DNA from: Phyllobates terribilis
Taxonomy: Eukaryota
Assembly (NCBI RefSeq): GCF_046119375.1
Contig: NW_027362770.1
Coordinates: 194,680,001-194,744,000 of the forward strand
Length of the DNA: 64,000 nucleotides
Reading direction: 5' to 3'
Below the pieces are notes generated by a model. It was not told where the DNA came from, made no database searches, and saw only the letters and a list, made by a program, of their open reading frames with translations. Both the position numbers and the translations under genes were made by a program. Positions 3,971 to 59,100 of this stretch are shown here, piece after piece; position 1 is the first letter of the stretch; each line of letters begins with the position of its first letter.

Positions 3971-5010
3971 ACGTGATAATAATTGTATTAATAATCTTAC
4001 TAATAATTCTATTCCGCTGTGGATTTTCTGGATGATTTTGTATATGAGACACTTTCTCTCTTCTCGGGGATGGAGCTGCCCGGGGACTTGTTACATCCAT
4101 CGCTCCCGATCTGCACCAGTGACTCCATGAAGGGGGACAGGATCTGGACTGGGAGCAGAAGAAAATGCTGAATATTCTGCTCTGTGTCAGGTTGTAGTTT
4201 GCACAGGATGAAGCAGCGAGACGTCGTTATAAGCGGAGAACTTCACTGGCCGGAATCTTATCCCCAGGAATCCGCCTGCAGACAGTGAGGAGGCGCCGCC
4301 ACCGATCACCTACAGCGTCCCCTATTGGTGGCCGGCTGCTCCTCACTACTACCCCCATCATCCGCCGCCTCCCCGGAGTCCTCGTCCTCTATAATCCACA
4401 TGTGAAGGTGGATGAAGCCGATCACATCCCGCTCCTCCCCGCAGCCGGTATTATAGGAGCGGATACTGCGCCACTAATCCGGGGATCAGACCCCTGGGGG
4501 GGAGAAGAGCGGCCGCCGATCAATGAACACGAGCGGATCGTCCGAGAGCCGCCCGACCGGACACCGCGCGATGTACAGACGATACAAAGAGCGGAGAAGC
4601 CATCAGCCAAAGAGCGGGAGATTCAAATTCAGCGATCAGCCAATCAGCACTAAGAAGAACCCCGGCTCCGCCCACAGGAGAACCCGTATCTGTTACCATT
4701 AATGACAATGAGATCCAGACCTGGAAATACATCAATCTGGGAGATTAACATCGATCAGAAGCATCAACCGATCTGGAGAGCAAAGGGTGCGCCCTGAAAG
4801 GGTTAACAGCTGAATAATGGAGAAAGCGGCTCTAGGACCCAGCGCTCCGGGAGAGGACGGGAGTCTATTTGTGGAGAGCGAGAACATCTGTCTCTATATA
4901 CAGCTCCCCTGTATCCCCGATATACCGCGCACTATGAGCCGCTGAGTGCAGCCACATGTCCCCTGATGAGAGGTACAGGACACGGAGCCACACGAGGCAG
5001 TTATACATGT

Positions 5011-5730
5011 GGTGGCACTGATCATACAGCTCTGCAAGGACAAGGTGGTGGCACTGATCATACAGCTCTGCAGGGACAAGGTGGTGGCACTGATCATACA
5101 GCTCTGCGGGGACAAGGTGGTGGATCTGATCATACAGCTCTGCAGGGACAAGGTGGTGGATCTGATCATACAGCTCTGCAGGGACAAGGTGGTGGCACTG
5201 ATCATACAGCTCTGCGGGGACAAAGTAGTGCCACTGATCATACAGCTCTGCGGGGACAAGGTGGTGGATATGACCATACAGCTCTGCGGGGACAAGGTGG
5301 TGGCACTGATCATACAGCTCTACAGGGACAAGTTGGTGGCACTGATCATACAGCTCTGCGGGGACCAGGTGGTGGCACTGATCATACATCTCTGCAGGGA
5401 CAGGTTGGTGGCACTGATCATACACCTCTGCAGGGACAAAGTGGTGCCACTGATCATACAGCTCTGCGGGGACAAGGTGGTGGATCTGATCATACAGCTC
5501 TGCGGGGACAAGGTGGTTGATCTGATCTTACAGCTCTGCGGGGACAAGGTGGTGGCACTGATCATACATCTCTGCAGCGACAAGGGGGTGGCAATTATAC
5601 AGCTCTGCAGGCACAAGGTGATGGTACTGATCATACAGTTCTGCGGTGATAAGGTGGTGGTACTGATCATACAGCACTGCGGGGACAAGGTGGTGGCACT
5701 GATCATACAGCTCTGCGGGGACAAGGTGGT
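5011..5730. repeat. 36-bp minisatellite, 20 copies, abutting the H1 stem-loop
   Basis: Unit GGTGGCACTGATCATACAGCTCTGCAGGGACAAGGT; 720 bp / 36 = 20 copies. Confidence 0.95.
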
Positions 5731-5746
5731 GGCTCTGATAAGAGCC
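5731..5746 (-). terminator. Histone mRNA 3' stem-loop (H1)
   Basis: Minus strand CACAAA-GGCTCTTATCAGAGCC-ACCAC. Confidence 0.93.
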
Positions 5747-5772
5747 TTTGTGGTAGGACAGAGCGGCTCCGC

Positions 5773-6417
5773 TTATTTCTTGGCCGCGAGCTTCTTGGCT
5801 TTAGTCGCCTTCTTAGCCGGACTCTTGGCAGCCTTGGGTTTGGCCGCCTTCTCAGCCGGGCTCTTCGTCACCTTCTTGGGCTTCGGAGCGGCCTTTGGCT
5901 TCTTGGGGCTCTTTGCTGCTTTCTTAGCCGCGGCTGCTGGCTTCTTGGCCTTTTTCGGGTTTTTCTTGGCCGCGGTCGGAGCCTTCTTTGGGGATTTGGC
6001 CGCTTTCTTGGCTGTAGGTCTCTTGGGTTTGGTTGCAGCCGCCGGCTTCTTCTTGGCCGGCTTGTCCTTCGTCTCCTGCTTCTTGTTCAGCTTGAAGGAT
6101 CCGGAGGCGCCGCTGCCCTTCACCTGGAGCAGGGATCCCTTGGTGACCAGAGACCTGACGGCCAGCTTCAGGCGGCTGTTATTCTTCTCCACATCGTACC
6201 CGCCGGCAGCCAGAGCCTTCTTCAAGGCGGCCAGAGACACCCCGCTGCGCTCCTTAGAGGCGGACACGGCTTTGACGATCAGCTCGGACACGCTGGGACC
6301 GGAGGGTTTCTTGCTCTTCTTGGCGGCCCCTGCGGAGGATTTCTTCGGCTGCTTCTTGGCTTTGGTGGCCGGTCCGGCGGGAGGAGGAGGAGCGGCGGCT
6401 GGCGCGGTTTCTGCCAT
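5773..6417 (-). CDS. H1: Replication-dependent linker histone H1, 214 aa
   Basis: [12 protein letters not shown]..., globular domain [45 protein letters not shown]...[10 protein letters not shown], Lys/Ala tail with SPKK motifs, stem-loop downstream; start ATG at 6417. Confidence 0.96.
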
Positions 6418-6484
6418 CGTGTGATGAGGAACTGACACAAGAATCTCCTGGAAGGAAAACACTGAGGAGGGAGCTGGAGGCGCC

Positions 6485-6610
6485 TCTTATATGTACAGTC
6501 ACACTGCGCACTGATTGGCTGCCTCCTCCTGAGCTTCTATTGGCTGACACTTGACACACCCCGCCCCCTCATGTCTGAGCCGAGTGAAGCTCCGCTCTCC
6601 CTTGTGCTTC
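6485..6610 (-). promoter_or_regulatory. H1 promoter: TATA-like, two CCAAT boxes, GC box, possible variant AC box
   Basis: ATATAA at about 6487-6492, GCCAAT at about 6514 and 6539, GGGGCGGGG at about 6559-6567, AAGCACA (one mismatch to the H1 AC box AAACACA) near 6603. Confidence 0.65.
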
Positions 6611-12923: not shown

Positions 12924-13874
12924 TTGCGAATGGTCTCCTGTGGGATCTCCTCCCAGACCTGGACTAAAGCATCCGCCAACTCCTGGATAGTCTGTGGTGC
13001 AACGTGACGTTGGTGGATGGAGCGAGACATGATGTCCCAGATGTGCTCAATCGGATTCAGGTCTGGGGAACGGGCGGTCAATAGCTTCAATGCCTTCATC
13101 TTGCAGGAACTGCTGACACACTCCAGCCACATGAGGTCTGGCATTGTCCTGCATTAGGAGGAACCCAGGGCCAACCGCACCAGCATATGGTCTCACAAGG
13201 GGTCTGAGGATCTCATCTCGGTACCTAATGGCAGTCAGGCTACCTTTGGCGAGCACATGGAGAGCTGTGCGCCCCTCCAAAGAAATGCCACCCCACACCA
13301 TTACTGACCCACTGCCAAACCGGTCATGCTGAAGGATGTTGCAGGCAGCAGATCGCCCTCCACGGCGTCTCCTGACTCTGTCACGTCTGTCACATGTGCA
13401 CAGTGTGAACCTGATTTCATCTGTGAAGAGCACAGGGCGCCAGTGGCCACTTTGCCAATCCTGGTGTTCTGTGGCAAATGCCAAGCGTCCTGCACAGTGT
13501 TGGGCTGTGAGCACAGCCCCCATCTGTGGATGTCGGGCCCTCATACCACCCTCATGGAGTCGGTTTCTAACCGTTTGTGCAGACACATGCACATTTGTGG
13601 CCTGCTGGAGGTCATTTTGCAGGGCTCTGTCAGTGGTCCACCTGTTCCTCCTTGAACAAAGGCAGAGGTAGCAGTCCCGCTGCTGGGTTGTTGCCCTCCT
13701 ACTGCCCCCTCCACGTCTCCTGGTGTACTGGCCTGTCTCCTGATAGCGCCTCCAGCCTCTGGACACTACGCTGACAGACACAGCAAACCTTCTTGCCACA
13801 GCTCGCATTGATGTGCCATCCTGGATGAGCTGCACTACCTGAGCAACTTCTGTGGGTTGTAGACACCGCCTCAT
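12854..13874 (-). pseudogene. Tc1 DD34E transposase, frameshifted
   Basis: HTH N-terminus, [15 protein letters not shown], then a frameshift near 13080 to [11 protein letters not shown]; the adjacent stop is altered to Ser by the repeat expansion. Confidence 0.92.
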
Positions 13875-14177
13875 GCTACTGTACCTCTAGGGGTGAGAGC
13901 AATGGCAAAATGAAAAAGTGACTAAAACAACAGCCAAAAAGGATGAGAACAGAGAAATGGTCTGTGGTCACCCTCTGCAGAACGGCTCATTTATAGAGGG
14001 TATCTTGCTAATTGCCGATCATTTCTACCAGTTGTTTGTTCCATTTGCGCAACAGCAGGAGACATTGATTCACAATCAGTGTTGCTTCATAACTGGACAG
14101 GTAGATTTCACAGAAGTGTTATTGACTTGGAGTTACATTGTGTTGTTTAAGTGTTTCCTTTATTTTTTTGAGCAGTG

Positions 14178-16230
14178 TAGTATAATGCACTCCCCATAGT
14201 CCTCCATATTGTATAATGCACTCTCCATAGTCCTCCATATTGTATAATGCACTCTCCATAGTCCTCCATATTGTATAATGCACTCTCCATAGTCCTCCAT
14301 ATTGTATAATGCACTCCCCATAGTCCTCCATATAGTATAATGCACTCCTCATAGCCCTCCATATTGTATAATGCACTCTCCATAGTCCTCCATATTGTAT
14401 AATGCACTCCTCATAGCCCTCCATATTGTATAATGCACTCTCCACAGTCCTCCATATTGTATAATGCACTCCCCACAGTCCTCCATATAGTATAATGCAC
14501 TCCTCATAGTCCTCCATACAGTATAATGCACTCCCCAAAGCCCTCCATATTGTATAATGCACTCCCCATAGTCCTCCATATTGTATAATGCACTCCTCAT
14601 AGTCCTCCATATTGTATAATGCACTCCTCATAGCCCTCCATATTGTATAATGCACTCCCAATAGTCCTCCATATTGTATAATGCACTCCCAATAGTCCTC
14701 CATATTGTATAATGCACTCCTCATAGCCCTCCATATTGTATAACGCACTCCCCATAGCCCTCCATATTGTATAATGAACTCCCCATAGTCCTCCATATTG
14801 TATAATGCACTCTCCATAGTCCTCCATATTGTATAATGCACTCCCCATAGTCCTCCATATAGTATAATGCACTCTCCATAGTCCTCCATATTGTATAATG
14901 CACTCCCCATAGTCCTCCATATTGTATAATGCACTCCTCATAGTCCTCCATATTGTATAATGCACTCCCCATAGTCCTCCATATTGTATAATGCACTCCC
15001 CATAGTCCTCCATATTGTATAATGCACTCCTCATCGTCCTCCATATTGTATAATGCACTCTGCATAGTCCTCCATATAGTATAATGCACTCTCCACAGTC
15101 CTCCATGTTGTATAATGCACTCCCCACAGTCCTCCATATTGTATAATGCACTCTCCATAGTCCTCCATATAGTATAATGCACTCCCAATAATCCTCCACA
15201 TAGTATAAATGCACTCCCCATAGTCCTCCATATTGTATAATGCACTCCTCATAGTCCTCCATATTGTATAATGCACTCTCCATAATCCTCCATATTGTAT
15301 AATGCACTCCCCATAGTCCTCCATATAGTATAATGCACTCCCCATAGCCCTCCATATTGTATAATGCACTCCTCATAGCCCTCCATATTGTATAATGCAC
15401 TCCCCATAGTCTTCCATATTGTATAATGCACTCCTCATAGCCCTCCATATTGTACAATGCACTCCCCATAGCCCTCCATATTGTATAATGCACTCCCCAT
15501 AGTCCTCCATATAGTATAATGCACTCCCCATATTCCTCCATATAGTATAATGCACTCCCCATAGTCCTCCATATTGTATAATGCACTCCCCATAGTCCTC
15601 CATATAGTATAATGCACTCCTCATAGCCCTCCATATTGTATAATGCACTCTCCATAGTCCTCCATATAGTATAATGCACTCTCCACAGTCCTCCATATTG
15701 TTTAATGCACTCCCCATAGTCCTCCATATTGTATAATGCCCTCCCAATAGTCCTCCATACAGTATAATGCACTCCTCATAGCCCTCCATATTGTATAATG
15801 CACTCTCCATAGTCCTCCATATAGTATAATGCACTCTCCACAGTCCTCCATATTGTATAATGCACTCCCCACAGTCCTCCATATTGTATAATGCACTCTC
15901 CATAGTCCTCCATATAGTATAATGCACTCCCAATAGTCCTCCACATAGTATAATGCACTACCCATAGTCCTCCATATTGTATAATACACTCCCCATAGTC
16001 TTCCATGTAGCATAATGTACTCCCCATCATCCTCCATGTAGTATAATGCACTCCCCATAGTCCTTCATATTGTATAATACACTCCCCATAGTCCTCCATG
16101 TAGTATAATGCACTCCCCATCATCCTCCATGTAGTATAATGCACAGCCGATAGTCATCCATGTAGTATAATACACTCCCCATAGTCCGCCATATTGTATA
16201 ATGTGCTCCATATTCATCCATGTAGTAGTA
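14178..16230. repeat. 31-bp minisatellite, about 65 copies (mostly ATTG/ATAG variants), degenerating at the right end
   Basis: Same unit family as 7247-7910; source of the spurious MEDYGECIIQYGGLW ORFs. Confidence 0.95.
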
Positions 16231-24518: not shown

Positions 24519-26265
24519 TTATGTTACGCTGCTATCATTCGGTGGTGATGAGAAGTCTGGCCCAATCCAGCCCTTGTTCATTTTTATAAGAGTCAGCCTG
24601 TCAGCATTGTCAGTTGACAGGCGGATGCGCTTATCAGTTATAATTCCCCCAGCGGCACTAAAAACCCGCTCTGATAAAACGCTGGCGGCAGGGCAGGCCA
24701 GGACCTCCAAGGCGTAGAGAGCCAGTTCATTGCATGTGTCCAGCTTGGATACCCAATAATTATAAGGCACAGTGGAATCACAGAGGACGTTGGTACGGTC
24801 GGCAAGGTACTCCCTCACCATCTTCCCAAACTTTGCACTCCTTGTGAGAGTACCCCGCGACTCAGGGCCTGTGCGATGGGAGGGTCTGAGAAAACTCTCC
24901 CAGAATTTTGACAGTGTTCCCCTGCCTCAGCTGGATTGAAGTTGTGTCTCTCTCGCCTGTACTCCTTGGTTGTCCAACCAATTGTGACCTCTGCCGCCAG
25001 CATTTTCAGATGGGAATTTTTTTAATAGTTCCGCAATAAGGGCCTTCTGGTACAGCCCCATTTTTGTAGACCTGTCCGCCTCAGGAATAATAGAGATAAA
25101 GTTCTACTTGTAGCGTGGGTCTAGAAGTGTCACCAACCAGTAATGACTGTCACCCAAAATTTTGAGAACGCGAGGGTCATGGGAAAGGCAGCGTAACATA
25201 AACTCAGCCATGCGTGCCAGACTACTAACAGGCAAGACTTCCATGTCCTCACCAAGAGGACGACTGACCATGCCTGGCTGTAGGTTCAGCGGTGTGAGCC
25301 ACAGATCTGCCTGCTCTTTCAGAGCTGTCCACAACTTTTCAGCATTGTGTGGTTTGTCACCTAAGCATATTAGCTTCAGCACAGCCTGTTGCCGCTTGGC
25401 CGAGGCCGTGCTGCAGTGCTTCCCTCTTGTGACTGATGTGGTAATTTCGGAGATGTAGGCTGAAGAGAAGGAGGAGGCTGAGAAGGATGAGGTGCAGGAG
25501 CCGTAGACTGTGGGGGCAACCCTTATTGACTTAGGGCCCACAATCCTTGGCGTCGAGAGGACGCGTTCCATCCCAAGGTCCGACTGGGTCCCCGCTTCCA
25601 CTATGTTAACCTACTGTGCCGTCAGTGAGATGTACCGTCCCTGCCCACAAGCACTTGTCCACGTGTCTGTGGTAAGGTGGACTTTCCCGGTAACTGCGCT
25701 GTTGAGGGCACGGCTAATGATTTGGGACACGTGATTGTGTAATGTGGGGACGGCACACAGGGAGAAAAAGTAGAGGCTGGGGACCGAGTACCGAGGGACG
25801 GCCTCCGCCATGAGGTTGCGGAATGCTTCCGTCTCCACGACGGCGCTGGGACAAGGACGTGGACGTGCTTCCTGATGCTGCTACTTGAGAGTGTGCAACG
25901 ACAGGTGCAGGGCAGGAGGCATCTTCGCATGCACTATGGACAGGCGATTGGCTTGCATGCACAATAGCTGAAGAAGCAATGATGCCACTTGCAGGCACTG
26001 TTCCTGGACCCTGGGGTTCTGCCCACAGAGTCGGGTGCTTTGCTGCCATGTGCCTGATCATGCTGGTGGTGGTCAGGCTGGTTGTTTTGCCACCGATGCT
26101 GATGCTGGCCTGACAGGTGGTGCAAATGGACTTTTTGTGGTTATCGGCAGAGTCTTTAAAAAACAACCCGACTCGGGAAGACCTAACAGTTGTACTGGCA
26201 ACTTCCTTCGTCTTGTTGTTACGGGGAACGGTTGCCTGCCTTCTGTCTATGGCCACCACACTGCT
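24519..26265 (-). pseudogene. hAT transposase, BED finger to C-terminal dimerization domain, disrupted
   Basis: BED finger (ICTTCQASIS...MIRHMAAKHP), catalytic VHLTTDTWTS, hATC domain LACPAASVLSERVFSAAGGIITDKRIRLS; several frameshifts. Confidence 0.9.
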
Positions 26266-26266
26266 T

Positions 26267-27617
26267 TGGGGTAAGTGAAGAGTCTCCGCGAGCTCAAAGA
26301 ACACTGGATTTTGGCTGTTGGAGCTGAAAAGAGGACATCGGTAAACCAGGGGAGGAGTCCTGAGGAGATAATTTGCATATTCCCACTGCATTTTGGGGTA
26401 AGTGAAGAGTCTCCGCGAGCTCAAAGAACACTGGATTTTGGCTGTTGGAGCTGAAAAGAGGACATCGGTAAACCAGGGGAGGTGTCCTGAGGAGATAATT
26501 TGCATATTCCCACTGCATTTTGGGGTAAGTGAAGAGTCTCCGCGAGCTCAAAGAACACTGGATTTTGGCTGTTGGAGCTGAAAAGAGGACATCGGTAAAC
26601 CAGGGGAGGAGTCCTGAGGAGATAATTTGCATATTCCCACTGCATTTTGGGGTAAGTGAAGAGTCTCCGCGAGCTTAAAGAACACTGGATTTTGGCTGTT
26701 GGAGCTGAAAAGAGGACATCGGTAAACCAGGGGAGGAGTCCTGAGGAGATAATTTGCATATTCCCACTGCATTTTGGGGTAAGTGAAGAGTCTCCGCGAG
26801 CTTAAAGAACACTGGATTTTGGCTGTTGGAGCTGAAAAGAGGACATCGGTAAACCAGGGGAGGAGTCCTGAGGAGATAATTTGCATATTCCCACTGCATT
26901 TTGGGGTAAGTGAAGAGTCTCCGCGAGCTTAAAGAACACTGGATTTTGGCTGTTGGAGCTGAAAAGAGGACATCGGTAAACCAGGGGAGGAGTCCTGAGG
27001 AGATAATTTGCATATTCCCACTGCATTTTGGGGTAAGTGAAGAGTCTCCGCGAGCTTAAAGAACACTGGATTTTGGCTGTTGGAGCTGAAAAGAGGACAT
27101 CGGTAAACCAGGGGAGGAGTCCTGAGGAGATAATTTGCATATTCCCACTGCATTTTGGGGTAAGTGAAGAGTCTCCGCGAGCTTAAAGAACACTGGATTT
27201 TGGCTGTTGGAGCTGAAAAGAGGACATCGGTAAACCAGGGGAGGAGTCCTGAGGAGATAATTTGCATATTCCCACTGCATTTTGGGGTAAGTGAAGAGTC
27301 TCCGCGAGCTTAAAGAACACTGGATTTTGGCTGTTGGAGCTGAAAAGAGGACATCGGTAAACCAGGGGAGGAGTCCTGAGGAGATAATTTGCATATTCCC
27401 ACTGCATTTTGGGGTAAGTGAAGAGTCTCCGCGAGCTTAAAGAACACTGGATTTTGGCTGTTGGAGCTGAAAAGAGGACATCGGTAAACCAGGGGAGGAG
27501 TCCTGAGGAGATAATTTGCATATTCCCACTGCATTTTGGGGTAAGTGAAGAGTCTCCGCGAGCTTAAAGAACACTGGATTTTGGCTGTTGGAGCTGAAAA
27601 GAGGACATCGGTAAACC
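26267..27617 (+). repeat. 127-bp tandem monomers (10 full plus about 0.65) forming the CR1 5' UTR
   Basis: Period 127 (GGGGTAAG at 26268, 26395 ... 27538); near-identical units. Confidence 0.95.
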
Positions 27618-27696: not shown

Positions 27697-28659
27697 ATGG
27701 AAGAGTCCAGGAGCCATTTGGTGAGCTGCATATCCTGCTACATGTTCACAGACTTGCCAGTGGAAAAGCCAAACTTCACATGCCAGAAATGCAAGCTTGT
27801 GTCCCTGTTGGAGGAAAAGTTGCGAAATCTAGAAGAGAGGTTAACTACCTTGAAAATCATTAAGGAAGGTGAAGAGTTCTTAGACAGAGCAGAATTATCT
27901 CTTCATGATTCAGAAAGAGAAGAAATTCGAACTGCACCTGACGAAACAGAGGAATGGAAGCCTGTGACCCACAGAAGCAGGAGGATCGAGAGGCAGTCAG
28001 CACCCATACTGCTCAGGAACCAGTACCAGGCTCTCACGCAGGAGAACCATGAAGAAATACAGCAAAATAAGACTTTGCCAGCAATGAATAACCTTGTAAG
28101 CCCTCAGAATCCTCCTGGATGGAGAAAGAAGAATGTTGTGAAGAAAAAACGGAGAGTGGTGGTCATGGGGGATTCCCTGTTAAGAGGAACAGAGGCCGCT
28201 ATCTGCAGACCAGACATAACCTCAAGAGAAATGTGCTGTCTTCCAGGAGCAAAAATTAAAGATGTGTCTGACAGGATATCAAGACTCTTCAGACCTACAG
28301 ATCACTACCCATTCCTGCTAATACATGTGGGGACAAATGACACCGCAAGAAAGGACCTGGAAACCATCTGCAGTGACTTTGAAGACTTAGGCAAGAAAGT
28401 GAAAGAATTGGGAGCGCAGGTGGTCTTCTCATCCATCCTCCCAGTGGATGGCCATGGAACAATGAGGTGGAATAAGATTCTACAGGTGAACAACTGGCTA
28501 CGTCGATGGTGCCGTCAACAAGGATTTGGATTTCTGGATCACGGAATGAATTACCTATACGATGGACTACTTGCTAGAGATGGGGTGCACCTTACGAAGA
28601 CTGGAAAACATGTATTTGGAAGTCGCCTTGCTACACTCATCAGAAGAGCTTTAAACTAG
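27697..28659 (+). CDS. CR1 ORF1p, 320 aa: Cys-finger/coiled-coil plus SGNH esterase-like domain
   Basis: CxxC...CxxC, heptad region, GDSL, GTND and DGVH blocks all present; ends RALN-stop. Confidence 0.9.
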   Translation: MEESRSHLVSCISCYMFTDLPVEKPNFTCQKCKLVSLLEEKLRNLEERLTTLKIIKEGEEFLDRAELSLHDSEREEIRTAPDETEEWKPVTHRSRRIERQSAPILLRNQYQALTQENHEEIQQNKTLPAMNNLVSPQNPPGWRKKNVVKKKRRVVVMGDSLLRGTEAAICRPDITSREMCCLPGAKIKDVSDRISRLFRPTDHYPFLLIHVGTNDTARKDLETICSDFEDLGKKVKELGAQVVFSSILPVDGHGTMRWNKILQVNNWLRRWCRQQGFGFLDHGMNYLYDGLLARDGVHLTKTGKHVFGSRLATLIRRALN

Positions 28660-28781
28660 AACAATGTGGGAAGGGAAGCAAAAGGCCAGAAAAAGCCATA
28701 CAGCTGACAAATACTATTGAGATCTCTGCTACTGGAAGTGGAAAAGAAGAACAAAGACAAAAAAATCTAAATAATAAAAAT

Positions 28782-31571
28782 ATGGGAGGAAGAGAAACCA
28801 ATCACAAACTAAAATGTTTTTATACAAATGCACAAAGCATGGGCAACAAACAAGGAGAATTGGAACTACTAATGCAGGAAAAGGAATATGATGTCATTGG
28901 AATCACTGAAACTTGGTGGGACGATACACATGATTGGAATAAAAGGCTAAAAGGATACAACTTATTTGCAAGAAACAGACTTGATAAACGAGGAGGAGGT
29001 GTTGTATTGTATGTTAGAAAAGCGAATATCTGCACAGAGATTGAAGCTTCAGAGACTGGGAGTTCTGTGGAAACTGTTTGGGTAAGAATACAAGGAGAGA
29101 ACAACGGAAAGGACACCATTGTAGGCATTTACTACAGGCCACCTGGGCAAGCTGAAGATATGGATGAACTCTTTATGTATCAAATGACCAAGTTCTCCAA
29201 AAAATATGACGTAGTGGTCATGGGAGATTTCAACTATCCAGACATTTGTTGGGAATCTCTCTCAAGTAAAACTAACAGGTCAAGCAAATTCTTATCCTCT
29301 CTTGCTGACAACTTTATCTTCCAAAAGGTAGGGGAGAAAACAAGGGGATCTGCTACTTTGGATCTAATTCTTATAAACAGGGAGGAAATGGTTGAGGAGG
29401 TAAAGGTGGCTGGGACCCTAGGAGGCAGCGATCATGCTATTATAGAATTTTGGATAACTAGAGGAGGAAGACATGTGAAGACTCAAACTTCAAGGTTAGA
29501 TTTTAGAAAGGCAGATTTTAAGAGACTCAGAAAGAGAATAGGAGGGATCCAATGGCTGGATGTCCTTAAGGACAAAAATGTCCAGGAAGGATGGGAAATT
29601 TTTAAAAATGAGATTCTCAAAGCACAATCGTTAACAATCCCGAAAAGTAGGAAGAATGGGAAGCATTTAAGGAAACCAGGATGGATGAACACAGAACTTA
29701 AACACATGCTAAAAAGAAAGAAAGAAATGTTTATTAAATGGAAAGAGGGAGGCATATCTAAATAAGATTATAATGCAGTCTGCAGATCCTGTAGGGCACG
29801 TATCAGGTTAGCTAAAGCTGACAATGAATTAAGGCTTGCAAGAGATGTCAAAAGCAATAAAAAAGGATTTTGGGGGTATGTCAAAAGTAAAAGAAAAGTC
29901 AAAGATGCTATAGGATTTTTACAGGATGAAAATGGAGAAATGGTAAGAGAGGATGTTGAGAAGGCCAAACTTTTTAATTCCTATTTTGCATCTGTTTTCT
30001 CTCAGAAAGAAAATGTAACATCAACTGATCTTCACTGTCCTTTTAAAGGAATAGAGGAATCCAAGTTATCAGTAAACAGAAAGATTGTGAGGGTATATTT
30101 AGCTAACATAAATGAGTTCAAGTCTCCAGGTCCAGATGAATTACACCCCAGAGTACTGAAGGAGATTGTAGAAGAAATTTTAGAACCACTCTCCATAATC
30201 TTTGAAAATTCTTGGAGAACAGGAGAAGTCCCAGAAGACTGGAGAAGAGCAAATGTTGTTCCTATCTTCAAAAAGGGGAAGAAGGTGGACCCAGGGAACT
30301 ATAGGCCGGTGAGTCTGACTTCTATACCAGGAAAGATCTTTGAACAAATTATTAAACAACATGTATGTAAGTACATGGATAAGAATGAAGTGATTAACCA
30401 GAGTCAGCATGGGTTTGTAACTAACAAGTCATGTCAGACTAACTTAATTTCCTTCTATGACAGAATCACTGACTGGGTGGATCAGGGAAATGCTGTAGAT
30501 ATAGTATATCTTGACTTCAGCAAAGCATTTGACAAAGTATCTCACATCATCCTTATTGAAAAAATGACCAAGTATGCAATGGACCAGGCAACTGTTAGGT
30601 GGATTCATAACTGGCTTAGTGATCGGACTCAAAGGGTGGTTGTAAATGGCTTCACATCCAGCTGGATGAATGTCTCAAGTGGGGTACCACAGGGCTCCGT
30701 CCTGGGACCTGTATTGTTCAACATCTTTATCAATGATTTAGATGAAGGAATTGAGGGTAAACTGATTAAATTTGCTGATGACACAAAGCTAGGAGGGATA
30801 GCTAATACTAGAGAAGAGAGAGAGAGGATTCAAAAAGACCTAAATAAACTGGAGCAGTGGGCAGCAACCAACAGAATGGTTTTTAACAGGGAAAAATGCA
30901 AAGTACTACATCTGGGCAATAAAAATGAAAAAAGCATATACAGAATGGGAGGAATAGAGCTAAGCAACAGTACATGTGAAAAAGACTTAGGTATACTAAT
31001 AGATCATAGACTGAACATGAGTCAACAGTGTGATGCAGCAGCAAAAAAGGCAAATACAATTCTGGGATGTATTAACAGAAGCATACAGTCTAGATCACGT
31101 GAAGTCATTATCGGTCTTTACTCCTCTTTGGTCAGACCTCATCTGGAATACTGTGTACAGTTTTGGGCACCACATTTTAAAAAAGACATAGACAAACTGG
31201 AGCAAGTTCAGAGAAGAGCGACCAGAATGGTGACTGGTCTGCAAACCATGTCCTATGAGGAACGGTTGCAGGATTTGGGAATGTTTAGCTTGCAAAAAAG
31301 AAGACTGAGAGGAGACTTAATAGCTGTCTACAAATATGTCAAGGGCTGTCACATTGTAGAAGGATCATCTTTATTCTCATTTGCACAAGGAAAGACTAGA
31401 AGCAATGGGATGAAACTAAATGGGAGGAGACACAGATTAGATATTAGAAAAAACTTTTTGACAGTTAGGGTGATTAATGAGTGGAACAGGCTGCCACGAG
31501 AGGTGGTGAGTTCCCCTTCAATGGACGTCTTCAAACAGAGGCTGGACAGACATCTGTCTGAGATGATCTAG
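28782..31571 (+). pseudogene. CR1 ORF2 (APE endonuclease plus reverse transcriptase) with one premature stop
   Basis: YTNAQS, GITETWW, GDFN, SDH (EN); YRPVSL, LDFSKAFD, GVPQGSVLGP, FADD (RT). TAA at 29763-29765, where the paralog at about 22309 has GAA; the frame continues to 31571. Confidence 0.93.
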
Positions 31572-31660
31572 TGAATCCTGCTTTGAGCAGGGGGTTGGAC
31601 CAGATGACCCAGGAGGTCCCTTCCAACTCTACCATTCTATGATTCTATGATTCTATGATT

Positions 31661-32256
31661 CTTCCTGTCTGTTGGGGTGTTCTGCCTCCCTCCCCCTGTG
31701 TGCTGCTCTCCTCGCTCTGCATGTCCTCCTGCCAGGTTGGGTCAGTTACTATATCATCCACCACATCATCTTCCACTTGCACACCCTGGTCCTCCTCCTG
31801 ACTTTTTGGCAATTGGGTCTCATCATCGTCCACCTCTTGTGACACTTTCCCACCGTCGACTTTGTGTGACCATGGCTGCTCAAATATTTGGGCATCGCTA
31901 CACGCGATCTCCTCTTGCCCCGCTTCAAGTGGACCAGGCAAGAGGCCCGAATCTATAAATGGAAAAGTGAACAGCTCTTCAGAGTGTCCAAGTGTGGGAT
32001 CAGTTGTCTCAGGGCACTCGGCATGGTGGGAGGAAGGAGGATCAGGGTGAGGAATATGCGGTCCAGACTCACGGCTACTGAGACTTGACCGTGTGGAAGA
32101 CAGGGTGGTGGTGGTGGCTAAGTGACTGGAAGCATTATCCGCTATCCAACCAACAACCTTTTGACACTGCTCTGTGTTCAATAGTGGTGTGCTGCGGTCC
32201 CCTAGAAATTGGGATAGGAAGGTCAGGCGAGAAGATGTGGGTGTTTGTTGTGGCAT
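31661..32256 (-). pseudogene. hAT transposase N-terminal acidic region
   Basis: ORF 31645-32256 is homologous to the regions preceding the BED finger at 38724-39335 and 44500-45392. Confidence 0.75.
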
Positions 32257-33365
32257 AATTTCAGCTTGTCCTCAGCCTCTGCATGCACCATCACCATCAC
32301 ATCCAGTTCCCGTCCCTTGCCACGTGCCTTGCCCATTTTAAATGGAGGACAGTTTCTTCCACGCTCACTACAAATGACTTAATTAGGAGCAAAGTTATAT
32401 GTGATCCGTGTGACGGAGAAACCACAGTTTTAAATACCTGGCCTGTGGGTAACTGTTTTGAACAGCAAACAGGTGCCCAAAACTTTGCTGACACACTGAA
32501 AAAAAATTTGAATGGAGGCCAGAAATGGCAGAATTTTCAGCATAATTATATGTGATCTGTGTGACGGACAAACCACAGTTTTAAATAGATGGATTTTAGC
32601 TCTTTAATATGGAAAGGACCTGGCTGTATTCTGCAGTGCCAACAAGCAAATGGCGCAGAAAAACCGTGTTCTCTGGATTGCTTTTTAAGCAAATTATGAG
32701 GATTAAAATGCAAAAAAAAAATATTCCTGGCCCCTGAGACATGGGCCTATTTCTAGAAATATGTAACAGCAGCAGAAGGCAGAACTGGAATGGAGCCTCT
32801 TGTGCTATATGCACTGCAGTCTGCTATATACCCTGCCTGCCTGCCTATATACACTGCCTGCCTGATATCTCAGCAGATGGATTAGTCCTCAGAAGGACTG
32901 TTTGTTAAGATGGATATGTGTAATGTACGGTTTTTCTCCCTACACTACGTAATACACAAGAAAATCTCTCCCTGACGCAGCAGCACCTCTTCCTACACTG
33001 TCTGATCCGGAGTGACTGTGACGAGCATGGCGGCGCCAGGTCTGATATACACCTGATGACGCTGTGCGGCCAGCCAATCACTGTAATGCCACAACCAACA
33101 TGGCTACGGCATTACAGTGCATGGCAGGCAATCCCTGCATGTTCATTGACTCTCTAAAGAGCGACAAACATGCAGGGAGGGGACCCAAGTTCCTGCCCGA
33201 GCAATCCCGTAAATACTCGCCGAGCTTGTCGAGCACCATGATGCTCGGGCGAATACCGAGTAGTGGCAAGCACGTTCGCTCATCACTAGTGCCCACTTAA
33301 CATTAAGAAATGTCCTGAGTCTCCCCCATGTACAGCTCCCCTATACATAGTATGATGCTCTCCTA

Positions 33366-47489: not shown

Positions 47490-48013
47490 TAGTATCAAGA
47501 AAAACGTCAGCTCGACACGCAAAAAAAAAAGCCCTCACCCGACCCCAGATCCTGAAAAATAGAGACTTTTTTTAAGCAAACTTTGGATCTTTTTTCACCA
47601 CTTAGATAAAAATATAACCTAGACATGTTTGGTGCCTACGAACTCGTAATGACCTGGAGAATAATAATGGCAGCTCAGTGTCAGCAATCAATGAACATGG
47701 TAAAAAAAAAAAAAAAAACTGTGTTTTTGCACTTTTTTTTGCAATTTCACCACACTTGAAATTTTTTCCCCGTTCTCCAGTACACGATATGGTAAAACCA
47801 GTGATGTTTACAACTTGTCCCGCAGAAAATAATCCCTCACACGGCCATATTCCAGTCCGGACGGCAGAGGCAGCCGAAGGGCTGAAATATTGGCACATGG
47901 GCCCCTCCATGACGTACCCCACCCCCTGCCACCGATATCTGCATCCATCCAAACAGCTGCGAATACATTGGTGGAGAGCCGGGCCGTATTGTGAGACAGC
48001 AGACGTGGTGACA

Positions 48014-48360
48014 TGTGGGGGGCTCATACTGTATATATGGAGGCTATGTGGGGGGCTCATACTGTATATATGGAGGCTATATGGGGGGCTCATACTGTAT
48101 ATATGGAGGCTATATGGGGGGCTCATACTGTATATATGGAGGCTATGTGGGGGGCTCACACTGTATATATGGAGGTTATGTGGGGGGCTCACTGTATATA
48201 TGGAGGCTATATGGGGGGCTCATACTGTATATATGGAGGCTATATGGGGGGCTCATACTGTATATATGGAGGTTGTGTGGGGGGCTCATACTGTACATAT
48301 GGAGGCTATATGGGGATCATACTGTATATATGGAGGCTATGTGGGGGGCTCACACTGTAC
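48014..48360. repeat. 33-bp minisatellite, about 10.5 copies
   Basis: Paralog of 2671-2950 with higher copy number. Confidence 0.9.
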
Positions 48361-48708
48361 ATCCTCCCGATACTCCAGAATCCGTTACATCAGTCTCCAC
48401 AGCGGAGAATTAGGAGCCGGAGTATCAGACACTAATGAGGGACATTTCCCGTGAACATCCGCCGACTCCTCTCCCCCCACACGGATGTGAGGATTTATGT
48501 GACCAAGCATTAACCCATTCATCTCCTCGCACTAGTATCCCGTGCAGTTTGTGGCGTTACAATGTGTTAGTGCAGGTAATCCTGTGTCTGTCCTCATACA
48601 ATCCCCCGTGGACATGTGTTCCCCCATACACTGTGTGGGGTAACATCAGCCCCATGAGAGGACACCCCCGAGATCAGCGGCGCCGGCTCTTGTGGTGACG
48701 GTGTGGGT

Positions 48709-53165: not shown

Positions 53166-56100
53166 CTAGATGGTGGCCCGATTCTAATGCATCGGGTATT
53201 CTAGAATTTGCATGCGGCTGACCGGGCGCCACTAAGCAGCGAAGCAGTGTGTAAATGGGTTGTGCACTACTTTTAATTAACTTCACAATGTATCCCCTCG
53301 GGGCCCCTAATGAATTTTGTCATCACGTCATGTTGTCAATCCTGCTTGTGACAACATCGCTGACGACGCACAGCCAGCACGTAATTCTCCCGACTGCAGC
53401 AGGATCTTGCTTCCGTTTACATCACCACTATTTGCGGCTGCAGCCGGGGGTCTGCTGTTCCCCGCACCACAGTGAATGACGGGCTCTGGCCGGGGTTATC
53501 CCCCATCGTGTCACATCCAGCATCCACAGCGCGGTCTGTCAATGTGGTTTGTATGGCTGCGTCATTCCTCTAATCCTGGTTTGTATGGCTGACTTATTTT
53601 GGATTGTACGCCTTCCTCATCTTAGCTTGTATGGCCCCCTTATCCTGGTTTTGTATGACCTTCTCATTCCCCCATCTCTACAGCACAGTTCAAAAACTAA
53701 ACCCTAATCCTCCCCTTGTTTCCTTTTCTCTGCTCCAGCGCTGTCTGTCCTGTTTTCAGCAGCTCCTCGCAGGGTGTGAGGCACAGCACGCGCTCTCAGA
53801 TACTGCTGTGATTAGCTGCTGTCTGTCCTGTTTTCAGCAGCTCCTCGCAGGGTGTGAGGCACAGCACGCGCTCTCAGATACTGCTGTGATTAGCTGCTGT
53901 CTGTAGATTCGCTGCTTTCACGCCGGCACTAAGTGCAGGAGAGGCACAAATCTGCATTCACTTTAGTAGCAGATGCTGCAGATGTCGCTATGAAGATTTA
54001 ACAATAATACAATGAATACACAGAATAATACTTTATTAACTATTATTGGTTATAGAACTTAATACAACTGAACAAAATTATTAAACAGATGATCAAAATA
54101 TATAAACTATTCCATGAATATGTAACAATATTTTACAATAAATCATCGGACAAAAGAAGTACGACCCTAGAATTTATTTCTTAACAATATCAACCTAAAA
54201 TATTTTTGTACACAACATTTTTGGTGACTACTTTTGGACTATCTGTAAGCAACTTTCCTTGTAAATGGGTATCCAAAACTTGCACCTTGACATTGAATCT
54301 CATTTTAACTCTTGAAAATGCAACATAGAGTTGTCCATGTCCAAAAACGGGCTCCGGTAAATATATGCCAACACGGTGTAGAGTTTGACCTTGTGACTTG
54401 TTTATTGTCATGGCAAATGCTGGTTTTACTGGAAACTGTCGACGTCGAAGCCTAAATGGAAGACCGGTGTCTGAAGGACATAAATCAATGCGTGGAATGA
54501 ACACTTCGTCTCCTTTTGCAGATCCAGTGATCACTCTTGATTGAATTATGTGGGAATGGAGTCCAGTAACAATAAGGCGAGTTCCATTACATTGACCATT
54601 TCTTGTATTTAGATTCCGAAGCAACATTACGATTGCTCCAACTTTAAGTTGTAGTCTGTGGGATGGCATTCCTGATGGCGTAACACTATTTAAATTTCAA
54701 CTGGATAATGCTCTCGTTCATCTTCATTGTCGACATCCACTGAATCATCACTTTTGTACAATTTATACTCTCCAGGCATTCTATCCATCACACGGGAATT
54801 TAGCAGAGCTACGTCATCGTTCTTGGGACAGAGAATTGCATAGGAAGAGGCCCTCTCAACACTGCTTTGGTCGCTCACATCTATTTCAACGCGTTGTCCA
54901 AAAACATCACTTACGATGCAGTCAGTGCACAACATGTCTTCTGGTATTTCAATAATGTCTTCTCCAAGGTTATATTCATTGCTAAGTTCACCATTACCAA
55001 GTTTAAGAAGCCAGTTGCTGTACTCTGGGTCAGAAGATCGCATGTTGTTAATTAGTTGTAGTTTATTAAAATCTTTCCAAAGGTCTGACATTTTTAAGGT
55101 TGACTCGATAATATTTGTTCTTGTTCCATTCGGTACAACTGGAAGGCATTGCCTAAAATCTCCGCCAAGGACAAAAACTTTACCTCCAAAAGGAATTTCA
55201 TTTTTTTCTGCAATATTTGCAGTCATAACTTCACGCAGAAGTCTGTCAATTAAGCTCAAAGCATATTTGGGTGCCATGGTGCACTCATCAAGTATCAAAA
55301 GATTTGCACTGTTTAACTGTTTTCCTGCAAATGTGTCTTGTTTTATTCTGGAAACGGAGATTTCATTGACTGGAACCGGTATCCCAAAGAGTGAATGCAT
55401 AGTGCGACCTCCTCTTAAAAGGTTTGCTGCAATACCTGTTGTAGCCGATGGCAGTACGACTTTTCCTAACCCTCTAACGTGATGCATTAAAACTTCATAG
55501 AGGTATGTTTTACCGCTGCCTCCAGGACCGTCAATAAAGAAACATTTTGGCGTTGGATCGGCTTGGTTTTCTTCAGCGCTCACAATAGTGTCATATGCAA
55601 TCCATTTTTGTTGATTTAAGGAGTTTTTCTACTCTCTTGCCAACAATAATTCATAAGCTTCGTCATACTCTTGAATTTGTGCAACTTGACTTGCAGGTTG
55701 TGTCAAATTAAAGTCTGAAAACGTTTTTCCATCCAGTAGTAGGACATTTTGGACATCTTGCATGGCATAACATTCGCAATTGTGACAATTTCCACTTTAG
55801 TTGTGAAGACGTAAGCAGTAATCTTCAATTAAATGTTCTTTGAAATTTGTCCAAAGTTGAGCCGGATTTGTAGGCGGTCCAAAGACACAAATATAGGCAA
55901 ACAATTCACGAAGTTTCTTAGGCATACGTAGGGTAACTACATACATATGCATTGCATTTGGCTATCTGGGTTAGTACAAACTTTATTGTTATTGCACCTT
56001 CTGTCTCTGTTTACCATATTTACTTATTCATGATGTAGCACTTTTTATTTCTATTCTTTGAGTCCATCATTAGCACTATGCACTTTATTGTGGACTTCAT

Positions 56101-59100
56101 TTAAACACAGGTATCATACATATTGTTCTATTTGGTATATAGTGATTGAGTATATAATGTATCAATCATATTCCATGTATTGTCCTAGCCAGTAACCTTT
56201 TCATTGTGTTATCCTTTCCCTATTTATCCTTCCATGTATATTTTATCATATCTATTCAATAAACATTATCGATTTTAATAATGTAGTTGATGTGTCACAT
56301 ATGTAGGTTGTCTCTAATATAGACACATTTACGCCTGAGCATATTTGAATATAGTCCTTAGATATGTAGGGTATCTGCGTCTTCTAAAGTAAACGTCCAC
56401 ATAGTATCATCCAATAGAAGTCCTAATGCCAAAGCTGCAGCTTTAAATGTTTCGTGCAATCTCCATTAACTGTTTTCAAATCTTCGTAACTTCTAGCTCC
56501 TTTGACATGCAGTAGTAACAGCCGAAAGCAATATCTTTGTTGATCCTTGACACTAACAGTATACATGCATCCAATTATTCTGCTAAGTCCTCATTGTCTT
56601 GGCTTCCAAGTTTTATTCCAAACGTGATGCTCTGGAATCTCTCGATACAAATACTGCCTTGCGTTTTCGTCACGTTGGTTCAGCAAAAAACATTCCATTA
56701 ATGTTGACGTTGTGCTTAAATTTTTTGAGACATCTTCGACTTGAGCATTTTCAAAGAAATAAAGCTGCTGTTGATTTGGTAAATGAATAGCTAAACGTAT
56801 AATGGCATGGGACTGTGAATGCATTGGAAGCGCAAATATTCTCCAAGCAGCTTCTGGAGCACTGACATATCTTGAGTCAACAAACCGTGATGATTCATCG
56901 TGATTGACTGTTTTTTGTTGTATTTCGACGTTAGCTTTGTCATGCCCCTTGTAGATGTACTTGAAAAGATATTTAACACTTTTTATTGAAGCGTAGATTT
57001 CAACGTTGATGTGACAGTTGTAGCGTTTTAATAAGTACGGGTTGTATGGAACTATCCATGAGTTATTTATAATCTTTTTATTGTGTACAATATTATCAAT
57101 CAGTTGTCTCTGGTAGGATGGGTAGCCGTCCAAATCTTTAACAATGTGCTGTTTCAACTGCTTTGGAAACCCTTTTGTACACTTTCCATTTTCCATGCAT
57201 GGACTTTTTGGATTTGCTACACCGTATGGACCATGAACCATATTACAGATTACAATATTATACAGCTCAGGATACTTTTTCTTGGTTAGGAATTTCAGCC
57301 CACACTATGTTGTCAATTTCATCCTCCGTGCGAAACTTGGAATCCGCGTCTAAAATAATTAGTATATGCGCATGTGGGAGACCTCGTTTCTGAAACTCTA
57401 TGACATGTACCATTGCTATGACTGTTCCAAAATGCCCATTTTTGATGTCTTTAAAAAGGCTGCTGAGTTTTAGTCGAAATACGCGTGCAACTAAGTCCGG
57501 CCTGTGTTCAACTTGCTGCCAGGGTTGTAGATTTTCTGTAATTTCCGGCCATTTAGGATTACAGGTTATTGTTAAAAAAATGTCAGGTCTTCCATACTTT
57601 GTTACTATTGCCATTGCATCTTGATAACGCTGTTGCATGTTGCGGGGGCTACCTTCAAAGGACGACGGGAGAATTACTGTTTTTCCAATTGGAATTCCTT
57701 TTTGAATGGATTGTTTTAGCAAATGTTCTCGAAGAATGCAGTAGTCTTCAACTTTAAGTTGTTTTTGGTTCATTCGTATTAAATTGAGCCGATTAGCTTC
57801 AATTTTAACGTATGCGTCGACTAAGTACTGTTGTGTCAGTTTCCCACCGTTTAAAATAGGATTGAAGTAATTTCGCACAGACAGAAGAAAACTGAAGTAC
57901 TGTAGTTGTGTAATTCTTCTTGAATTTCCTTGCTGGTGTAGGTTTTCATGCCACCCTTGATCACTGCTTGGAAAGAATAGCGGATACAGAAGAGCATCAA
58001 GGTTGCTGTGCAAAATGCTAATACGTTGTGTTTTAGGAACGAAAGGGTTGTTTTTGTCTGGCTTAAGATGGACTAATATATCTCTTTGAAAAGGAGGCTC
58101 TCCATCATCGTTTTGAAAAACAACTGCGACCTCACTTACACGTGGTTTGTTGTAACATCGGGGATCTTGTTGACGTTCTAGAAGGCATTTCCGTTCCATT
58201 TTGTATAGCTCTCTGTTCCTCCTCAGCTTCGACGTCTTTTAGCATGCGATATGCGGCATCAAATGGGCTGATTGTTTGTAAATGTACGGCAATTATGTTC
58301 ATCAGTTCTGCATTACACTTTTCATTTTCTTTTCGGTTCATCCTTTGTTCTGTAGCCTCATTTGGATCAAAGATGTATAATTGTGCAAATGTTGGTGGTT
58401 GTCCTAGCTCTGGGTGAAGTGTTCCAGTGCGGTGGTAGATCTGGCCATGAATTTTAAAACAATACGGTCCGAATCCAGGGGGTGGTGCAATGTTGGCACC
58501 AAGTGAAGCAAACGCATGAGAACTGTTGATACTTCTGATATTTTCCATAAAATTTATACTGTGTTCATGTGTTCCTTTCATCAACTGCTCAAACAGATCT
58601 GAGTAGTGACATCTGGGTAGCATAACTTTTCCTTTTTGGCAGCACTTAGTAAACTGATTGTCGGATGTTTTTTCCTCGATGAAATTCAAAGAGTCGCATT
58701 TTGAACAAACTACATTCATCTTCCCACAGTAGTGTTGAATAATTATAGTTTCACTGTCTGTTACATAACGTGCAAGTTGTTGAATGTTCTGCTGGGTTTG
58801 CCTTAGTTGGTAGAGCATTCGTTTTTGATAAATCTGTCGATCGTGTTGTTCTCGGTTTGTCCTGGATTCTGGAGATTCATTCAGCCGACATTGTCTATGG
58901 TATTCCGCATCGTGTTCCTGTCTAGCCGCAGTGTGTTGCGGTCTTTCCCGTTCCCGACATTGTCTGTGAGATTCTGCATCCTGGGCTTGTCTGGCGACAG
59001 TGTGTTGTGGTGTCTCCTGTTCCCGACATTTTCTGTGAGATTCCGCATCCTGGGCTTGTCTGCCGGCAATGTGTTGTGGTGTCTCCTGGTCCCGAAGTTT

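Follow-up and report, generated by a model that had tools for sequence, protein, structure and literature searches.

A conserved slippery heptamer at the ORF1 stop of a CR1 element in Phyllobates terribilis points to probable -1 frameshifting into ORF2

Results

A full-length CR1 element lies in the window

The window analyzed here, 64,000 nucleotides of the 10.6 Gb Phyllobates terribilis genome (contig NW_027362770.1, positions 194,680,001 to 194,744,000), carries a full-length CR1-type LINE on the + strand. Its 5′ UTR consists of 10.7 near-identical tandem monomers of 127 bp (26265 to 27617), a layout resembling that of rodent L1 promoters. ORF1 encodes 320 aa between Met 27697 and the stop codon ending at 28659, and is made up of a Cys-rich N-terminus, a coiled-coil-like stretch, an SGNH esterase and the C-terminus R-A-L-N-stop. 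The esterase matched PF13472 at E 1e-7, slightly below the curated cut-off, and the ORF1 profile matched a solved esterase, PDB 4C1B, at E 1.5e-39. The ORF2 frame (28650 to 31571, or 973 codons counted from the heptamer described below in intact copies) encodes an APE endonuclease (EN; PF03372/PF14529) and a reverse transcriptase (RT; PF00078), with matches to L1 ORF2p structures at E 1e-48. The window copy has a premature TAA in ORF2 (29763 to 29765), and in four of six other full-length copies of the family that we fetched, all 973 codons are open. The 3′ UTR (31572 to 31662) terminates in (ATTCTATG)3.6; an octamer repeat tail at the 3′ end, with no poly(A), is a hallmark of CR1. Each CR1 feature that we tested is present: APE and RT in ORF2, an SGNH esterase in ORF1 and the octamer tail.

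Homologues of the element are amniote and amphibian, and the nearest named ORF1 homologue, at 90%, comes from a poison frog. The window family, which we call family 1, is abundant and young, and all 150 scored matches are 100% identical over 168 aa. ORF1 of the tegu lizard is 69% identical to that of the window, well above the turtle and bird ORF1s, and one CR1 ORF1 has been deposited under the name of Klebsiella, probably through contamination (P0004, P0042 for both). A decayed DNA transposon on the - strand (25104 to 26264 and 31663 to 32300) seems to host the CR1 insertion, and translations of these flanks resemble what we take to be BED finger and hAT transposase motifs. Further stop-free frames of 230 to 484 codons occur in the window at 4807 to 6486, 13047 to 15775, 47618 to 48454 and 54690 to 59921.

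ORF1 ends in a slippery heptamer and ORF2 is open in the -1 frame

A preliminary description of this DNA, made from the letters alone, placed a slippery heptamer at the ORF1 stop with ORF2 in the -1 frame, and each element of that account could be confirmed. Read directly from the sequence, ORF1 ends GCT TTA AAC TAG (28648 to 28659), and T_TTA_AAC (28650 to 28656) stands in X_XXY_YYZ register with the frame that runs from Met 27697 to the stop at 28659. U_UUA_AAC is the only canonical heptamer in register anywhere in ORF1. It adjoins the TAG stop (28657 to 28659), which becomes CTA (Leu) when read in the -1 frame, and that frame is free of stops from 28578, via TTT AAA CTA GAA, to its first Met at 28782, beyond which it continues into EN and RT. 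The junction peptide foreseen at the time, RRAL-N/K-LEQCGK, follows from the sequence.

The linker between the stop and EN (28660 to 28808) is open in -1 only, a family copy having zero stops in -1, two in frame 0 and three in +1. It contains an out-of-frame AUG that opens an 18-codon ORF in the +1 frame (28664 to 28720), a G-rich motif, GGGAAGGGA (28668 to 28676), that we consider a candidate stimulator, and the first in-frame AUG of ORF2 (28782 to 28784). The first EN strand, LKCFYTN (28809 to 28829), aligns with residues 8-14 of L1 ORF2p, of which Asn14 is presumably an active-site residue.

Four families in the host genome share the junction

In family 1, GCTTTAAACTAG and an open -1 linker were found in 30 of the 30 top copies, three of them with a linker 3 nt shorter, and all 33 distinct copies keep the -1 frame. 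Family 2 reads GCG TTA AAC TAG, that is, G_UUA_AAC, in 20/20 copies, with EN in -1. The junction of family 3 (esterase identity 41%) is TGT TTA AAC TAG, and at two of its loci, L148 and L150, the -1 frame is open for 973 codons. Family 4 reads TTT TTA AAC TAG followed by a G-run.

The frame is less uniform among the copies of families 3 and 4. In family 3 it is -1 in 24 of 38 copies; in family 4 it is -1 in 17 of 41, +1 in 13 and 0 in 11, since the length of the G-run is unstable. The -1 linker length is the mode in both families. Among the first 100 listed of 3,393 family 4 matches, 34 have the -1 length, and a hand count by frame gave 38, 28 and 34. A four-copy subclade of family 4 has no -1 member, and one copy, L189, has an intact ORF2 in frame 0. 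We read the off-frame copies as homopolymer instability around a -1 source, and regard them as the weakest point of the case.

In three copies of family 3, which lie on three chromosomes and belong to a single rare sublineage, the same small deletion joins the two ORFs in frame; one of the three has gone out of frame again at the G-run, and a fourth fused copy arose separately. The shared deletion looks as if a fused source had transposed, which would lend minor support to a functional fusion protein; mobilization in trans or recurrent deletion may instead account for it. The natural in-frame fusions of this family (L147/L170, L167-L169, L179/L200) have open frames of 1,299 and 1,214 aa. A 6-nt linker deletion in L147-L150 was considered as a propagated subfamily and rejected, as it is a single insertion duplicated with its flank.

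Family 2 looks chimeric when L159, L161, L148 and L189 are compared. Its ORF1 esterase is closest to that of family 1 (83% identity, against 38-41% for families 3 and 4), but its ORF2 is closer to those of families 3 and 4 (64-70%) than to that of family 1 (44%). From this pattern, the heptamer and the -1 frame look to have survived an ORF1 swap near the junction. Families 2-4 (L148, L159, L189) also have in common a longer 3′ UTR with a ACTATGTT-type tail and an internal G-rich/pyrimidine pair in which the letters covary, while the 3′ UTR of family 1 is bird-like. No L2-type esterase family stood out in the P. terribilis genome as a control.

Frame and codons are conserved across lineages

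We collected junctions by extending each ORF1 match to its stop first and indexing the motif afterwards. One metagenome scan gave 66 loci, of which 18 reach the junction and entered the analysis; these were called bird-type from their likeness to bird gene models. Searches of viral contigs, GTDB genomes, plasmids and phages yielded no relatives, and five prokaryote contigs that matched the junction pattern were dismissed as chance hits. Among 22 lineage representatives, EN lies in -1 in 14 and in +1 in three decayed bird-type copies, and five have no EN anchor, so that ORF2 is in -1 in 14 of the 17 informative representatives, the one for family 4 having been picked for being -1. The distances from stop to EN (89, 119, 134, 137, 146, 149, 152, 170, 257 and 263 nt) all place it in -1. 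A constant ORF2 frame, to which the preliminary description had tied its reading, thus holds for 14/17 representatives but not for every copy, as the frame varies within two families and is 0 in L189.

A codon alignment of eight lineages, which have common ancestry and ORF1 esterase identities of 31-85%, has 28 invariant residues, and a single codon is used at just four of them. Two of the four are the codons that close ORF1, TTA and AAC. At the last Leu, 8/8 lineages use TTA, codons vary in all five other invariant Leu columns, and TTA makes up 12 of 138 other Leu codons in the alignment. Free synonymous replacement of TTA and AAC, named beforehand as evidence against frameshifting, was not seen here. 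A separate alignment, A1, was made from proteins already ending in L-N, and its invariance was therefore left unused. The heptamer, the adjacent stop, the -1 register and the open linker are present and conserved. Judged by these sequence comparisons, the junction is real and deeply conserved, of putative recoding type and not a product of chance.

A conserved G-run follows the heptamer, with no folded stimulator found

The preliminary description saw no stem by eye, in agreement with our folds of five windows of this copy, which gained nothing over shuffled sequence (z -0.15 to +1.36). We found no conserved local stem or pseudoknot, with one of 44 folding windows over 15 lineages having z below -2 in ViennaRNA, which is blind to pseudoknots. 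A stem-loop or pseudoknot 5-9 nt past the heptamer was also not found, with no stem 1 visible.

The position of the G-run is conserved. G occupies +11, +12, +13, +14 and +15 past the heptamer in 19, 20, 20, 21 and 17 of 21 junctions, 17 of which are bird-type, and G at +12 to +14 includes part of the motif in the window. These G residues could be an RNA signal or reflect a constraint on Gly in the linker. In 14/14 lineages a percentile test ranks this stretch with the most G-rich parts of the element; the test is inflated, having set the best of 10 windows against single windows. Two more specific roles gained no clear support. For a G-quadruplex, the window family has two GGG tracts only, and the percentile test is inflated; for pairing of the G-run with a pyrimidine tract in the 3′ UTR, the tract was a top-3 site in the four frog families but ranked below tenth place in two bird-type elements; it already has a partner of its own within the 3′ UTR.

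Start codons are variably placed upstream of EN

Termination at the ORF1 stop followed by reinitiation, as in L1 or SART1, at a nearby AUG or at none, with TTAAAC-stop and the G-run serving as a reinitiation or RNA-binding signal, is the main rival explanation. The positions of AUG codons bear on it in both directions. An in-frame AUG lies within 7 codons of the heptamer in 7 of the 14 -1 representatives, and in the window copy one lies 9 codons upstream of EN; reinitiation is therefore possible in these elements. Several bird-type lineages read TAG-NN-ATG, and family 2 has an AUG at codon 7. The idea also draws on L1 and SART1, which have been described as reinitiating (PMC5972666), on the absence of a folded stimulator and on the off-frame copies of family 4.

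Ahead of EN, an AUG occurs at the ORF1 stop or close to it in some lineages and is absent from family 3 and the lineage B080. In family 3 the first in-frame Met falls inside the first EN strand, I-K-C-M-Y-T-N, which aligns with L1 ORF2p residues 8-14, and no AUG precedes that strand. That the first AUG of some lineages lies in or after this strand counts against reinitiation, as does the out-of-frame AUG at 28664 that a reinitiating ribosome would meet first in the window. The first AUG of family 1 (28782) reads ATT in two other organisms (depth 7970/8000 and 4536/4559) among the 40 of 84 variants listed, so that a new AUG may exist elsewhere in these two, and the next in-frame AUG in the window is downstream of the EN Asn. 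Missing AUGs are not decisive, because L1 ORF2 has itself been described as able to start without its AUG.

The linkers add a second line of evidence. In 11 of the 11 lineages tested the linker has no stop in -1 and one to nine in each other frame. Such openness is informative only in lineages without an early AUG, and for the AUG-less linkers open only in -1, shuffling gave P 0.027 in family 3 (42 codons) and P 0.074 in B080 (53 codons). The value for family 1 is P 0.027 over 49 codons, nine of which lie past its AUG. Reinitiation leaves unexplained why, at ten different linker lengths, ORF2 lies in -1 and is free of stops as far back as the heptamer, and why the variants of the motif are restricted to known slippery heptamers. 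We consider it unlikely as the sole route; it may coexist with frameshifting where an AUG comes after the stop.

The ends of ORF1 proteins vary in ways that fit the heptamer

The motif could also be a by-product of protein constraint, if ORF1p needed a C-terminal L-N and its codons were inherited by descent. L-N is strongly conserved in proteins, and the lineages are related. Of 246 ORF1 homologues, 186 reach the last helix, and 124 of these end in x-L-N; the others have L-N plus an extension (8), an early end (17) or another end (37). The residue at x is A in 81, T in 13, Y in 6, S in 5, G in 4, E, F and V in 3 each, L and H in 2 each, and N and C in 1 each. K, Q, M and W never occur at x, which fits the heptamer because their codons cannot supply the U. 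Among 48 representatives below 60% identity, L-N ends 30, G-N 4, K-N 1 and other residues 13. The distant ORF1 proteins, metagenome proteins known from protein only, end Q-G-N in six cases and S-K-N in one, ends that would fit G_GGA_AAC and A_AAA_AAC. Switching among L-N, G-N and K-N, seen here in protein ends, is what selection on the heptamer would predict. A teleost clade that includes a loach protein, probably L2-type, ends otherwise than L-N.

We regard protein constraint as very improbable. The other invariant Leu columns are saturated with codon changes, the 4C1B match stops at profile position 319 of 323, the teleost clade and the distant relatives end differently, and the fixed -1 frame is left unexplained. 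An origin of the fusion in the RNA, through splicing or through slippage of a polymerase on T/A or G runs, is the least probable of the alternatives: the G-runs past the heptamer are indeed unstable among family 3 and 4 copies, yet in family 1 no run at the junction exceeds three and 33/33 copies keep the frame, and the phase of the heptamer matters to ribosomes only.

Deposited ORF2 proteins have varied starts. The beginning of EN was recognizable in 83 of 120, and [FV]KL lies upstream in 21 of them, two being an unrelated V-K-L. In the other 19 of 83 gene models an in-frame F-K-L lies 36-100 aa upstream of EN (16 from stork and one each from ibis, godwit and lizard), which speaks for a -1 reading of the junction. 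The models of anole, softshell turtle, duck and alligator start at M-G-N-K-Q, past the EN Asn, and an earlier Met is present in many models from turtles and lizards.

Discussion

We propose that ORF2 of the window CR1 is likely expressed by programmed -1 frameshifting at the U_UUA_AAC that ends ORF1, a reading to which we give a probability of roughly 0.8. The gag-pol-like ORF1-ORF2 fusion suggested by the preliminary description gains support from the codon constraint and from the -1 frame of 14/17 representatives; frameshifting itself is what we infer from them.

We hypothesize that most ribosomes terminate at the ORF1 stop and release ORF1p. A minority would slip one base back, tRNA-Leu re-pairing on UUU and tRNA-Asn on AAA, and would then read the stop as CUA (Leu); in intact copies the product would be a fusion of ORF1, linker, EN and RT some 1,290 aa long. 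The efficiency of slippage is probably low because there is no folded stimulator, which would suit a low ratio of ORF2p to ORF1p. The pause may stem from the adjacent stop or from the candidate unstructured G-run at +11 to +15. As CR1 appears to have no protease, the fusion would stay whole. Where a lineage has an AUG close by, reinitiation may supply ORF2 in parallel.

A broader version of this proposal, which we put forward tentatively and hold to be somewhat doubtful, is that the whole esterase-type CR1 clade, together with the G_GGA_AAC/A_AAA_AAC relatives, makes RT only as an uncleaved fusion, with no folded RNA and with the G-run as stimulator. The signal would then comprise the heptamer with the stop beside it and, at fixed +11 to +15, a G-run, which would be a new kind of stimulator, acting through a bound protein or a natural G-quadruplex.

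Translation of LINE ORF2 has been called an open question (PMC3894237). If true, CR1 frameshifting would answer it, in a form that can be tested, for the LINE that dominates in most vertebrates. The N-terminus of ORF2, for which gene models now begin at varied internal Mets, would move, RT would be tethered to ORF1p, and CR1 retrotransposition assays could be designed accordingly. CR1 would also offer an old cellular -1 frameshift that seemingly works without a folded stimulator.

Canonical vertebrate CR1 (type IVB; PMC4120745, PMC13343379) is like the window element in its esterase ORF1, APE-RT ORF2 and octamer tail. The word "frameshift" does not occur in the main texts of these two papers, nor "CR1" in the text of PMC5009743 that we searched. 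In the main texts covered by our search we found no report of frameshifting in CR1; an earlier proposal may exist, for instance in the 1997 chicken and turtle CR1 papers, supplements or Repbase/Dfam notes.

Mammalian L1 and silkworm SART1 resemble CR1 in having a bicistronic LINE RNA from which ORF2 is made at a lower level, and are described as reinitiating, L1 over a 63-nt spacer and SART1 at an overlapping stop-start. In the protein-stimulated frameshifts of cardioviruses and arterivirus nsp2, a constant spacing of ~10-14 nt separates the slip site from the stimulatory motif. The spacing of the CR1 G-run resembles theirs, a likeness of position only. Rous sarcoma virus gag-pol and nidovirus ORF1a/1b are like CR1 in that the first ORF ends in the same heptamer classes and the polymerase lies in the -1 frame (PMC5009743); these frameshifts use a downstream pseudoknot, whereas we found none in CR1. 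IBV uses U_UUA_AAC and equine arteritis virus uses G_UUA_AAC, the type present in family 2, and U_UUA_AAC, G_GGA_AAC and A_AAA_AAC rank among the shiftiest heptamers (PMC5009743). Among APE-type non-LTR elements, -1 frameshifting is described as required for ORF2 of Dictyostelium TRE5-A and TRE3-A (PMC5911963), which differ from the window CR1 in clade and host and, likened to it by description, provide a precedent.
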